A stretch of DNA of 5,859 nt from a virus (lineage: Duplodnaviria > Heunggongvirae > Uroviricota > Caudoviricetes), in the IMG/VR virus record IMGVR_UViG_2534681998_000007; one strand, given 5' to 3'. The notes beneath the pieces are model-generated. The model saw only the letters and a list, made by a program, of their open reading frames with translations, was not told the DNA's origin and searched no databases. The number at the start of each line of letters is the position of its first letter. Position 1 is the stretch's first letter. This document shows, piece by piece, positions 3,081 to 5,859 of the stretch. The position numbers and the translations under genes were made by a program.

Positions 3081-3226
3081 ATAGAGACAAAAATATTAAT
3101 CTGAGAAATATTTATTTCACGCTGTATATTTGATTATTTAATGTGCAGGTACAATGACTTTTATTTTTTGTTGTGTATATAATCAAATATATGGTTATTT
3201 TTCACCCTGCGCATTCAGCACGCAAC

Positions 3227-3316: not shown

Positions 3317-3472
3317 TTACTTCTCAGATTCGTAGTCTACGAAGACAGCGACCTCCGTCTGACCGGTTCGGATTCGCACCTCGCAGAGGTCTTTCCTCGT
3401 TACCAGTGCCGTCACTATGACGGTTAAACAGATGACGATCAGGGCGATTAACATCGCCTTTTGCTGCTTCAT
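3317..3472 (-). CDS. hok: Hok/Gef-family type I toxin (51 aa), HokD/HokC-like
   Basis: MKQQKAMLIALIVICLTVIVTALVTRKDLCEVRIRTGQTEVAVFVDYESEK: single transmembrane helix plus the conserved LVTRKxLCEVRIRTG...EVAVF periplasmic motif of Hok/Gef proteins. ATG at 3472 with GGAG 8 nt upstream. Symbol given at family level only. Confidence 0.85.
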   Translation of the reverse strand: MKQQKAMLIALIVICLTVIVTALVTRKDLCEVRIRTGQTEVAVFVDYESEK

Positions 3473-3529
3473 AGCCTGCTTCTCCTTGCCTTTCGGCACG
3501 TAAGAGGCTAACCTACATGTGTTCAGCAT
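3317..3529 (-). CDS. mok: mok-like leader ORF (70 aa), in-frame N-terminal extension ending at the hok stop
   Basis: ATG at 3529 with GAGG about 9 nt upstream; shares stop and frame with hok, as in chromosomal mokC/hokC as I recall their annotation. Whether it is translated is inferred from locus architecture. Confidence 0.55.
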   Translation of the reverse strand: MLNTCRLASYVPKGKEKQAMKQQKAMLIALIVICLTVIVTALVTRKDLCEVRIRTGQTEVAVFVDYESEK

Positions 3530-3590
3530 GGATTGAGCCTCAGATTAATGTTAAGCGTCTTGCAGGACGCGTAATGTTAACTGGGGCTTT
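3521..3590 (+). ncRNA. sok: Predicted Sok-like antisense RNA (approximate coordinates)
   Basis: By analogy with hok/sok, the antisense RNA is encoded opposite the mok translation-initiation region. Only a weak plus-strand promoter is visible (TTGCCT 3486-3491, 17-nt spacer, TAACCT 3509-3514) and I could not find a clean terminator, so the ends are uncertain. Confidence 0.3.
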
Positions 3591-3629
3591 TCTCTATCTG
3601 CCGTTGGTGTTCATGCCCGAGGCAGATAG

Positions 3630-3645
3630 CCTCAAGCACCCGCAG
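3630..3645 (-). promoter_or_regulatory. hok mRNA 5' complementary box (tac/ucb-like), partner of 3252-3267
   Basis: Sits immediately downstream of the predicted hok promoter. The mRNA 5' sequence ...GGGUGCUUGAGGCUAUCUGCCUC... resembles the 5' end of plasmid R1 hok mRNA as I recall it. Followed by a 9-bp stem (3594-3602/3621-3629). Confidence 0.5.
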
Positions 3646-3682: not shown

Positions 3683-3766
3683 TTATCCCCAGCGGCAAAT
3701 CGAATACACCACCAGCGCCACCGCCATCGCAATTCCTACCGTTGTGAATGCTTCAGGCCAGGTCAT
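3683..3766 (-). CDS. Small 27-aa hydrophobic ORF (MTWPEAFTTVGIAMAVALVVYSICRWG), absent from the ORF track
   Basis: Translated by hand. The ATG (plus 3764-3766) overlaps the TGA stop of the DUF551-like gene (ATGA) and is preceded by AGGAGGTG at 5-nt spacing. Predicted single transmembrane helix; TAA stop at 3683-3685. Confidence 0.35.
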   Translation of the reverse strand: MTWPEAFTTVGIAMAVALVVYSICRWG

Positions 3767-4320
3767 TGATTCACCTCCTGCGGCGGTTCTGGTAGCGACA
3801 TCCAGTGGGTTGCTTGCCTAAGATCATTACCCGGACTAACTGCTATACCTCCGCGCCGGAACGTGCCTCCGAGATAGCGTGCGGAATATATTAATGGCCC
3901 AGCCTCGCTATCGATATTCATCGAAATAAGCACGTTCTGGCTCTTTTCAGGCATTCGCTCAGTACAGCTTATCCAGCCATCCAGAGTTATCGGAGATCTG
4001 GTTGACGTTTCCGAGATTTCCCGAAAATTGTTGGTTGACGAATTCTTATTTTCCCGAAAGTTTCCGGCCTGAAGCATGGCGACGCGGCAGGCGTTCCAGC
4101 CATCAGCATATGTTTTAGTTACACCGTCGAGATGGCAGGTAAGCAAATCCATTTCATCAGGCACTACCATTGCTATCGGCTCTGCTTCCAGTGATGCCAG
4201 CGCGATACGAAACACATTAGCCAGCAGGCTGTCTGAAGACTTGTTATCGTGCGCCGAGTCGCTCAGGAAGCCTGTGATGTATGATTTAATCTCCGCGCGT
4301 TCTCTGGTAATAGTGCTCAT
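3763..4320 (-). CDS. DUF551-like phage protein, 185 aa
   Basis: Complete ORF with AAGGAAA SD about 8 nt upstream of the ATG at 4320. The C-terminal region GWISCTERMPE...VLIS...GGIAVS...THWMSLPEPP matches the DUF551 pattern as I recall it. Confidence 0.65.
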   Translation of the reverse strand: MSTITRERAEIKSYITGFLSDSAHDNKSSDSLLANVFRIALASLEAEPIAMVVPDEMDLLTCHLDGVTKTYADGWNACRVAMLQAGNFRENKNSSTNNFREISETSTRSPITLDGWISCTERMPEKSQNVLISMNIDSEAGPLIYSARYLGGTFRRGGIAVSPGNDLRQATHWMSLPEPPQEVNQ

Positions 4321-4321
4321 A

Positions 4322-4540
4322 TCAGTTTTCCTTATACGGATTAATTTTATTGTGCAGTGCGCTGAATGATTCCCATGTCACATCGGTATATAGCTCAATA
4401 ACTGGTTCAAATGTCCTTCCAATTATCCAGACCAGTAATAGCGGGGATATCGGTATCATCAACACTATAAACAGAATGAAAAACAGAAACTCTGTTGTTC
4501 TGCTCTTTCGTGGGTAATTTTTTTCTAAATAATGTTTCAT
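4322..4540 (-). CDS. Small membrane protein, 72 aa, unknown function
   Basis: Complete ORF with a hydrophobic stretch FLFFILFIVLMIPISPLLLVWIIG (one predicted TM helix). Stop is 1 nt before the DUF551 start (TGAtATG). AGGAGG lies 24 nt upstream of the ATG, separated from it by a GNRA-loop hairpin. Confidence 0.5.
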   Translation of the reverse strand: MKHYLEKNYPRKSRTTEFLFFILFIVLMIPISPLLLVWIIGRTFEPVIELYTDVTWESFSALHNKINPYKEN

Positions 4541-4667
4541 TTCTTACCGCCCTTTCGGGCGGCCTCCTGATGTTCTGAGGGTGCAGGAATCCCTCCGGTT
4601 AAGGATTTAATAAAAATCGTTTCTGATTTAAATCTTCAGTATTTAGTTGTTAGTTGGTTTATCGCCT

Positions 4668-4979
4668 TTATGCTTCAGCCTTATTTCGCAACCAGACACA
4701 AACCGGGCCATCTTCCGTATCATGAATGGAACCAATAAACCAGCCATCGCCCTCTGGTCGTTCCGGTTCCCATGCAGAAATATCAGCATCACACGCATCA
4801 AGGTCAGCACATCCTTCATCTCTGAAGCAGAGGACGTATTGAAGATTATTTTCCTCCATCCAGGCGTTAAACTCTTCCGTTGAAATATATTCCCGACCAT
4901 CACAGAATTTTTCATATTCAGGATGTGTCCAGTAGCCATATCCGTCACGAACTACCGGCATTTCTTTAATTTCACTCAC
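4668..4979 (-). CDS. Highly acidic small protein, 103 aa, unknown function
   Basis: GTG start at 4979 with GGAGG 6 nt upstream (alternative ATG at 4961). Overlaps the upstream gene's stop (GTGAGTGA). By hand count 25 Asp/Glu versus 8 Lys/Arg, with 5 Trp and 5 Cys. Confidence 0.55.
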   Translation of the reverse strand: MSEIKEMPVVRDGYGYWTHPEYEKFCDGREYISTEEFNAWMEENNLQYVLCFRDEGCADLDACDADISAWEPERPEGDGWFIGSIHDTEDGPVCVWLRNKAEA

Positions 4980-5199
4980 TGTTAACCTCCTGCAACGCTA
5001 CACGATACGCCTTCTTTATCCACGCCTTACTGCCATATAATTTCGTCTTCATAATAAACACACCTGCACGACTCGCCGATATCCCCGGACAGGTTAACAG
5101 CACAGCATCCACCACACGGTTATGCTTCCGAAACTCCATTACAGTACTGCTGATAACCACCTGCCCCACCGGGCCGTAATCCTGATACAGGATTTTCAC
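4972..5199 (-). CDS. Small basic protein, 75 aa, unknown function
   Basis: GTG start at 5199 overlapping the upstream TGA (GTGA), preceded by AGGAGGGTG at 5-nt spacing. By hand count 11 Lys/Arg versus 5 Asp/Glu. Confidence 0.5.
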   Translation of the reverse strand: MKILYQDYGPVGQVVISSTVMEFRKHNRVVDAVLLTCPGISASRAGVFIMKTKLYGSKAWIKKAYRVALQEVNSE

Positions 5200-5477
5200 G
5201 CAGACACCCTCCTGTCGAAATAAACGTAGTTATTCACTATGCGCAGCGGCATGCCTAATTTTCTGGCAATTTCCCTTCTTTGCATGCCTCTCTGATGCAG
5301 TTGCCGCGCCAGCTCAATATCACGCTGAGAATATTTTGCCGACGGGTGAAAATCACCACGTAACATCATGCTGATGCCCAGCTCCCGTGCCTTCGTTCTC
5401 ACTGCCGCTTCAGTTCGTCCGATAAGTGCGCCAACGCTTTTTACCTTCATCGTTCCCGCACACTGCCGGAGTATCAT
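5196..5477 (-). CDS. Putative HTH DNA-binding protein, about 93 aa
   Basis: Start chosen at the ATG at 5477 (MILRQCAGTMKVK...); the alternative is ATG 5450. The upstream part of ORF 5196..5600 overlaps the end of the preceding gene in another frame and looks like GC-rich noise. Two HTH-like segments (GRTEAAVRTKARELGIS; RREIARKLGMPLRIVNNYV). The SD is weak for either start. Confidence 0.55.
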   Translation of the reverse strand: MILRQCAGTMKVKSVGALIGRTEAAVRTKARELGISMMLRGDFHPSAKYSQRDIELARQLHQRGMQRREIARKLGMPLRIVNNYVYFDRRVSA

Positions 5478-5509: not shown

Positions 5510-5859
5510 TCACCGCTGCTGTTCTCTGGTGGCGGTAATATCCCGGAGAATATCCCGGCACTTGTTCAGCTCCCGCAGCGCGGCGCAGACTCGCTCCCAC
5601 TTCTGAACCTGACCTTTTGCCCGGCGCAGCTCGCGGTTAGCCACATGCAGCGATGGTAAAATCAGACCATCCGGATGCTTTCTGGTGAACGACGGCTGTG
5701 ACTGCACTGTGACCGCCACACTTTCCGTTTTTATTTCTTCCTGTGTTTCCGCTTCCCCGACTGGTAACGCAACACCTGCTGGCTGAGGAAAGGCTTTACC
5801 ATCCGTTTCCGTTATGGATGCGGCTTTCGGCTCTGCCGGTAAATCAGCGCCCGGTATGC
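5510..5859 (-). CDS. 3' portion of a gene truncated by the window edge (C-terminal 116 codons), function unknown
   Basis: Hand translation shows this frame is open from the window end to the TGA at 5510-5512. The ORF-track entry 5510..5719 is only its GTG-initiated tail. C-terminus ...RELRRAKGQVQKWERVCAALRELNKCRDILRDITATREQQR. Confidence 0.55.
   Translation of the reverse strand, partial: IPGADLPAEPKAASITETDGKAFPQPAGVALPVGEAETQEEIKTESVAVTVQSQPSFTRKHPDGLILPSLHVANRELRRAKGQVQKWERVCAALRELNKCRDILRDITATREQQR

Follow-up and report, generated by a model that had tools for sequence, protein, structure and literature searches.

Mosaic joining of two accessory genes in a Rac-like lambdoid prophage, and a widespread acidic protein family as an anti-defence candidate

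Small, strongly acidic proteins of phages and conjugative plasmids include several DNA mimics: Ocr and gp5.9 of phage T7, Arn of phage T4 and plasmid ArdA. DNA mimics are encoded by dispensable accessory genes, often located near DNA methyltransferases. The 103-residue protein considered here, p103, resembles them in all of these respects. In lambdoid phages, lambda Ral, Rac Lar and the products of nin or pL ORFs are encoded in non-essential early or delayed-early mosaic slots, a niche which they have in common with p103; in lambda, ral occupies the slot after N. Small acidic inhibitors of nucleases are also a well-known pattern.

The p103 gene lies in a window of 5,859 nucleotides (the whole stretch of DNA analysed). 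Pfam and PHROG scans, together with the RefSeq annotation of a 95%-identical locus from E. coli O111:H8, assign the window to a Rac-like lambdoid prophage of E. coli. All substantial ORFs of the window are carried by the minus strand. In order of transcription, the features around p103 and its 75-residue neighbour, p75, are as follows:

5510–5859, minus strand: DUF1627 gene, cut by the window end, first in transcription order
5196–5477, minus strand: gene for an HTH 'DNA-binding protein', annotated by RefSeq at 94 aa; the longest ORF extends to 5600
5208–5213, minus strand: AGGAGG, the Shine-Dalgarno (SD) sequence of p75
5196–5199, minus strand: GTGA overlap of the HTH gene stop and the p75 start
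4972–5199, minus strand: p75, GTG start, 75 aa, phrog_1001
4986–4990, minus strand: SD-like GGAGG for p103, 6 nt upstream of its GTG and inside the p75 coding sequence
4972–4979, minus strand: 8-nt overlap GTGAGTGA, containing the p103 start GTG and the p75 stop TGA
4668–4979, minus strand: p103, GTG start, 103 aa, phrog_1372
4541–4667, minus strand: 127-nt gap 3' of p103, which ends a tightly packed three-gene run
4322–4540, minus strand: DUF4014 gene, after the 127-nt gap
3763–4320, minus strand: DUF551 gene, after DUF4014

Beyond DUF551 follow hokD with sok, DUF1367, a YbcO-like nuclease, a DUF1133 protein, the C4 and isrK RNAs and an ORF6N antirepressor. The DUF1133 protein gives a weak antiterminator-Q match. 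Upstream of the window genes, the longer RefSeq locus carries a repressor/cro-like pair, YdaT and replication genes. This gene order places p75 and p103 between replication genes and Q, in a nin-like accessory region of delayed-early type, consistent with the association with phage early regions suggested on first inspection.

The original prediction described a basic 75-aa protein coupled to an acidic 103-aa protein, and apart from the strand, which is the minus strand, the description is accurate. The RefSeq coding sequences are identical to the two ORFs (WP_000699809.1 for p75 and WP_000034815.1 for p103, both annotated 'hypothetical protein') and show the same 8-nt overlap. p75 contains 11 Lys and Arg residues and 5 Asp and Glu residues (net charge +6, pI 9.8). 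p103 contains 8 and 25 respectively, giving the predicted net charge of -17 and a pI of 4.1, with 5 Trp (4.9%) and 5 Cys. Placing the p103 start at this GTG fits the N-terminal sequences of homologues in other genera (MxxIxALPVERD...). Both are genuine genes rather than chance ORFs, since p103 is found at 37–67% identity in 25 other species and a profile search with p75 finds 816 homologous clusters. The predicted overlap with an internal GGAGG is likewise present, and from this arrangement we infer that translation of p75 and p103 is coupled. The HTH gene also overlaps p75, which has an AGGAGG of its own, and the run is therefore one of three tightly packed genes, not two. It would presumably be transcribed from the early rightward promoter; a consensus scan for promoters and terminators around p75–p103 returned no minus-strand signal.

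Several RNA features lie downstream. A GC-rich hairpin with a 7-bp stem (4546–4563, minus strand; GCCGCCC-GAAA-GGGCGGU) separates an AGGAGG from the ATG at which the DUF4014 gene starts (4540), and might affect DUF4014 translation or make the transcript more stable. The whole 127-nt gap folds with z=-2.3, and no T-run terminator was found there. A complete hok/sok type I toxin–antitoxin locus occupies positions 3317–3641 (minus strand), in which a Hok-family ORF (3317–3529; Pfam HOK_GEF, E=1.1e-22) overlaps an Rfam match to the sok antisense RNA (3467–3641, 113.5 bits). Further Rfam matches on the minus strand are to the C4 antisense RNA (1097–1181), its a1/b1 targets (1244–1297) and isrK (1207–1284). 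The C4 and isrK matches sit between the Q-like DUF1133 gene and the ORF6N antirepressor (462–1043), an arrangement resembling the C4 antisense control of an antirepressor in P1 and P7.

Coupling of a basic to an acidic protein raises the question of whether the two form a functional pair, as had been proposed for this locus. The proteins would then bind one another, acting as regulator and effector, as chaperone and inhibitor or in a toxin–antitoxin-like manner, with coupling setting their ratio. The two charges are indeed opposite, the 8-nt overlap exists and so does the internal SD, and of 5,426 complete E. coli genomes 797 match the segment and 521 match across both p75 and p103. This co-occurrence is, however, confined to one near-clonal DNA segment and one 84% variant. 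In p103-anchored loci, p75 is found only where p103 is 98–99% identical to the window copy; together with the 84% variant, these cases belong to one E. coli lineage. p75 is absent from 25 of 25 p103 loci of other species and from about 50 other viral loci, while p103 is absent from 28 of 28 divergent p75 loci (55–61% identity, with sequences like those of Salmonella and Citrobacter proteins), where several unrelated genes follow instead. Close copies of p75 (93–97% identical) are followed by p103, by a methyltransferase-like gene (157–162 aa) or by an Ead/Ea22-like gene (153 aa). Every divergent locus of either family lacks the other gene.

Counts across larger collections give the same picture of conserved co-occurrence or adjacency being absent across divergent genomes. 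When profile HMMs were run on every ORF of 186 loci, a set which includes contigs sampled twice, both families were found in 66, p103 only in 80 and p75 only in 40. Relatives of p103 occur on 2,042 plasmids, 1,761 of them conjugative, as against 32 plasmids, mostly non-mobilizable, for p75. No p75–p103 fusion was found among the fusion proteins examined. Long p103 homologues (162–174 aa) were considered as candidate fusions and proved to be frameshift read-throughs or to carry an unrelated Cys-rich N-terminus instead. Searches for components of defence and toxin–antitoxin systems matched neither protein (PADLOC at E up to 1; NCBIfam).

Small genes 5' of p103 in other elements were also considered as remote homologues of p75. 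Three of these, D6_95 (74 aa), mEp213 gp46 (74 aa) and PY54 ORF47, each lie upstream of a p103 relative; hmmsearch and hhalign were negative for all three (hhalign probability below 1%). Together with an 84-aa ORF of E. coli, these small ORFs are unrelated to p75 and to each other. The genes upstream of p75 are variable too: the HTH gene precedes p75 in E. coli loci (67–100% identity) and not in Salmonella and Citrobacter loci. In Pantoea stewartii and Erwinia sp. (loci L016, 4294–4632, and L019, 4294–4638), a 61–64% identical HTH homologue lies directly 3' of a p103 relative and overlaps it. This order is the reverse of that in the window and p75 is absent, so that association of the HTH gene with p103 may be more frequent than that of p75 with p103. 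In phage TL-2011c, a DUF1627-domain gene (L188, 2004–2734) lies just upstream of a p75-family gene in an exo-xis-type region of the Stx group. The window shares DUF1627 upstream of p75, with the HTH gene between them, which hints at a loosely conserved DUF1627–p75 block.

The junction itself is instructive. A megablast match to phage Rac-SA53 stops at window position 4978, exactly at the p103 start codon. Nucleotide alignment of junctions reveals a single 8-nt overlap architecture (GTGAGTGA, GTGAGCGA, ATGAATGA) with different genes on either side. At other loci the NTGANTGA joint links p75 to the methyltransferase-like or Ea22-like gene, and p103 to the different 84-aa ORF, so that the same joint couples each gene to unrelated partners. 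The seam is found at 4972–4979 in the window, at 3221 in loci L139, L143 and L147 and at 4001 in L054–L086. The E. coli genes downstream of it all start with Val or Met, then Ser or Asn, then Glu. Because the same architecture joins different genes, the overlap can be read both as a coupling signal and as a modular recombination seam, and alignment of these junctions suggests that the short conserved linker is such a seam between modules. The 84-aa ORF, which contains CPFCG and is coupled to p103 in many E. coli prophages, was considered as a possible Lar-like protein; it resembles a zinc ribbon, and Pfam does not detect Lar in it.

The comparative data thus already largely refute the pair that had been predicted, and on these genomic comparisons it is highly improbable. 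Phages, species and plasmids each show the two families assorting independently, and their junction is a mosaic joint that can be reused; p75 and p103 are very probably two independent accessory genes. Their adjacency is one product of mosaic recombination at the short NTGANTGA joint, which doubles as a stop/start overlap, and each of the two large families moves independently. Coupling thus reflects the dense packing of genes in this region, not a two-component system. The wider reading, in which the genes are independent and p103 acts as an inhibitor, is moderately probable as a whole. Of the two proteins p103 is the anti-defence candidate; p75 is not.

The p75 family (residues 1–74 match the full-length phrog_1001 HMM, E=8.3e-38) is basic throughout, with a mean net charge of +6.7. 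Relatives are found beside xis and int in the exo-xis-type region of Fels-1 and many Stx phages. The lambda exo-xis ORFs were examined as possible relatives, and no match was found in lambda between 28.8 and 31.5 kb. The predicted fold is tentatively beta-beta-alpha-beta-beta-alpha, similar to ACT or ferredoxin-like domains; it is tentative because four of the five AF2 models have a pLDDT of 40–50, only one being confident, and sequence identity to ACT domains is 8–15%. This fold is very common, and p75 lacks a ligand-binding motif. Unlike ACT and ferredoxin-like domains, p75 is basic and has a conserved EFRKHNRVVD helix. It would thus be a small basic alpha/beta protein, possibly ACT-like, with a role unrelated to that of p103.

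The p103 family is larger in range. Residues 1–102 of p103 match the full-length phrog_1372 HMM (E=4.1e-56), and an exhaustive profile search finds 690 representative clusters, defined at 50% identity, at E up to 1e-3 and 224 at E up to 1e-10. Phage relatives come from Escherichia, Klebsiella, Erwinia, Yersinia (PY54), Pectobacterium, Serratia, Providencia, Pseudomonas, Burkholderia, Ralstonia, Vibrio and Nitrincola, and from the P1-like phage D6; all are annotated as hypothetical. As originally stated, neither family is a recognised one: p103 and p75 have no match in Pfam, NCBIfam or PADLOC, and phrog_1372 and phrog_1001 carry no functional annotation, so that membership merely names the proteins. 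Clear homology to a structural or metabolic family was looked for and not found, sequence and profile searches of the PDB with p75 and p103 giving only noise (best E=0.01, over 22 residues of DDA1). Neither family turned up in the literature, whether searched by accession, PHROG identifier, peptide motif or topic, or in the supplements of one screen of enterobacteriophage accessory genes (PMC12373910).

The AlphaFold model of p103 (pLDDT 82, pTM 0.73) begins with a short strand followed by two helices; a second strand, an acidic loop of 27 residues and a C-terminal beta-hairpin complete it. The loop (residues 53–79) is variable, has a mean pLDDT of 63–67 in 10-residue blocks and carries about half of the charge, whereas the hairpin is highly conserved (GWFxGSIHDTEDGxVCxWLR). 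Strong acidity is a conserved trait of the family: across 131 representatives the mean net charge of the domain is -13.3 (5th–95th percentile -18 to -7), with -5.1 in the N-terminal half and -6.5 in the loop, and acidity is conserved at few individual positions. Invariance is seen at R11, G15, W17, H19, P20, W40, W70, P72, P75, G77, G79, W80, F81, I85, G91, W96 and R98. Since charge and an aromatic and polar framework are both conserved, both appear to be under selection, which fits a binding module better than an accidental composition. The pattern is not the signature of any known mimic. R11, H19 and R98, together with the HDTEDG turn of close relatives, might just as well belong to a catalytic or ligand-binding site.

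How p103 compares with the DNA mimics is of particular interest, as its composition had been taken as typical of them. It has their strong negative charge and small size. Its richness in Trp is real (mean 5.7 per domain in the family) but, to our knowledge, Trp-rich composition is not a recognised hallmark of DNA mimics. Homology to a mimic was not found: sequence, profile and fold searches with p103 detected no similarity to any solved DNA mimic or known anti-defence protein. In contrast to the mimics, the p103 model is a small alpha/beta sandwich whose acidic loop is floppy, the Trp/Gly/Pro/His skeleton is strongly conserved, and the plasmid copies lie outside the leading region. A mimic of this kind would present its carboxylates in a rigid surface array matching the phosphates of B-DNA; the share of the p103 charge in the variable, low-pLDDT loop bears on this indirectly. 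With respect to Ral and Lar, neither p75 nor p103 matches Lar_restr_allev (PF14354) or is homologous to either protein, and the 84-aa zinc-ribbon-like ORF of E. coli prophages is not scored as Lar either. A Lar-like domain appears solely as a fusion partner of p103, in three representatives, and not in p103 itself.

The genes found next to p103 relatives in phages bear on several explanations of its role. In mEp213 the relative lies in the pL operon just downstream of N, which is the ral slot of lambda, and upstream of cIII, kil, erf and abc2. In PY54 the p103 domain forms the N-terminal part of ORF48, which has gene 46, a 'recombination associated protein', on one side and an exonuclease and Dam methylase on the other. 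The D6 relative precedes the ppp phosphatase gene. In other species, Pfam confirms methyltransferases beside p103 relatives (a Dam+Dcm fusion and a SAM methyltransferase), together with RecT, TraU, a DndB-like protein, an Rv2179c-like exonuclease, ParB-HTH and a TraR zinc finger. The p103 domain is also fused to many partners, in either order. Among 53 long representatives examined with Pfam and PHROG, these are Lar-like in three (P0274, P0349 and P0376), a Tad2-like Thoeris anti-defence domain in one and RdgC in one; others are Rv2179c-like and further exonucleases and DHHA1, while the majority are PHROGs without an assigned function. As genes overlap here, some fusions may be gene-calling read-throughs, and they are best read as evidence of neighbourhood.

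Some long homologues have distinctive architectures. P0265 (305 aa) contains two tandem p103 domains (residues 15–121 and 169–271). P0069 and P0072 (162–163 aa) carry a Cys/His-rich N-terminal extension of about 45 aa (MKIIFVNGKSKCGCEMRFSDGCGEYSDIHEITLCETH...), and the MKIIFVNGKSKCGCEMRFSDGCGEYSDIHEITLCETH motif also starts a separate neighbouring ORF in L019 (4877–5299). A recurrent fusion partner is a domain of about 95 aa, 'ERxRQ..EGWT.EHDD..GELA.AA..Y...WPW..WKP..RR.LVKAGALILAEIERLDR' (core 'ERxRQ...WPW...AEIERLDR'), which is attached at either end in at least seven representatives (P0282, P0299, P0301, P0345, P0352, P0356 and P0359) and is a near neighbour of p103 in one genome locus (L009, 5226–5984). 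A Pfam scan of P0282, P0299, P0301, P0356 and P0359 at E up to 0.1 returned nothing significant, the one weak match, to DUF1523, being sub-threshold (E=0.032).

One explanation of these data is that p103 is a true DNA mimic which, like Ocr, ArdA and gp5.9, inhibits type I restriction-modification, BREX or RecBCD-type enzymes. In its favour are the charge of -17 over 103 aa, the conservation of acidity in 131 family representatives, the occurrence of the family in both phages and conjugative plasmids, the adjacency or fusion of its members to orphan DNA methyltransferases and Lar-like domains, and the location of the mEp213 copy in the slot after N. Such mimicry is quite unlikely. The contexts themselves (methyltransferases, Lar-like and Tad2-like fusions, the mEp213 slot) are suggestive, not specific; the neighbours of p103 are typical of any phage early region, and guilt by association is therefore weak.

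On plasmids, p103-family genes are found in 2,042 PLSDB entries, 1,499 of which are from Klebsiella. Known plasmid anti-defence genes cluster in the leading region, and the plasmid copies were accordingly sought there, beside ardA, psiB or ssb; they are located instead in tra-operon and finO–repA slots, filling several variable positions of F-type transfer regions:

Klebsiella IncFII: finO, PIN, DUF2726, p103-like (WP_004152383.1), phospholipase D family, repA, in that order, with a 4-nt DUF2726 overlap
Enterobacter and Kosakonia plasmids: p103-like gene between traW and traU
Serratia plasmid: p103-like gene between traF and trbB
Yersinia ruckeri plasmid: p103-like gene before repA
Coordinates of plasmid p103-like genes: L189, 8983–9291; L190, 6983–7306; L191, 4989–5339; L192, 4986–5333; L193, 3998–4303

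Alternatively, p103 could serve not in counter-defence but in DNA transactions of the element that carries it, helping for instance in recombination, replication or conjugative transfer, or could be a small enzyme or a ligand-binding domain; its location inside F-type tra operons, between traW and traU or traF and trbB, is consistent with this. The presence of RecT, Erf, exonucleases, ParB-like proteins and an RdgC-like protein among the neighbours of p103 also favours such a role, and the invariant polar residues R11, H19 and R98 hint at a defined site. Against this, p103 is dispensable, patchy in distribution and always in variable slots, and it is absent from lambda and most lambdoid phages. 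No catalytic family signature was detected in it, and a protein of about 100 aa with a long acidic loop looks like a binder rather than an enzyme. A role in the element's own DNA transactions is therefore unlikely.

The Klebsiella IncFII arrangement raises another explanation, namely that the family consists of immunity-type inhibitors of an adjacent nuclease, comparable to barstar and the Im proteins, and that the phage copies are orphan inhibitors. There the p103-like gene overlaps the DUF2726 gene by 4 nt and is followed by the phospholipase D family gene; DUF2726 is covered in a survey of the PD-(D/E)XK phosphodiesterase superfamily (PMC3424549). The adjacency to DUF2726 is, however, restricted to one plasmid backbone lineage. 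On other plasmids and in all phage loci p103 lies beside unrelated genes, and DUF2726 occurs in none of the 53 fusion proteins, which makes an immunity-type origin very unlikely.

Our preferred reading is that p103 is a small soluble alpha/beta domain in which bulk negative charge and an aromatic/Gly/Pro/His/Arg skeleton would both be under selection. It would bind and block a nucleic-acid-handling protein of the host or of a rival element, for example a nuclease or a restriction-type enzyme, and would thereby act as a factor in counter-defence or host takeover outside any known DNA-mimic family. An inhibitor role of this kind, counter-defence being taken in the broad sense, is put forward tentatively; its support from context is weak, and homology lends it none. 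That the family, shared by temperate phages of many Proteobacteria and about 2,000 mostly F-type conjugative plasmids, makes up a new, widespread class of acidic inhibitors which neutralise nuclease or restriction-type defences of the host, using a fold unlike those of known mimics and anti-defence proteins, is the more specific proposal and a rather doubtful one.

As a coupled anti-defence or regulatory pair the locus is ordinary: it is a chance juxtaposition of mosaic accessory genes, typical of lambdoid nin and pL regions. What the analysis does show is that one short overlap joint (NTGANTGA) serves as both a translational-coupling signal, as far as its SD and overlap indicate, and a recombination seam. 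The useful remainder is the p103 family, with no Pfam model, no literature, conserved acidity, 690 clusters and about 2,000 plasmids, among which are clinically important Klebsiella IncFII(K) backbones. Its breadth, conserved charge and lack of annotation make p103 a reasonable, low-cost candidate for counter-defence screens. If the family did prove to act in counter-defence, it would bring a new fold into the anti-defence repertoire, with consequences for how phages and resistance plasmids are seen to become established in new hosts.
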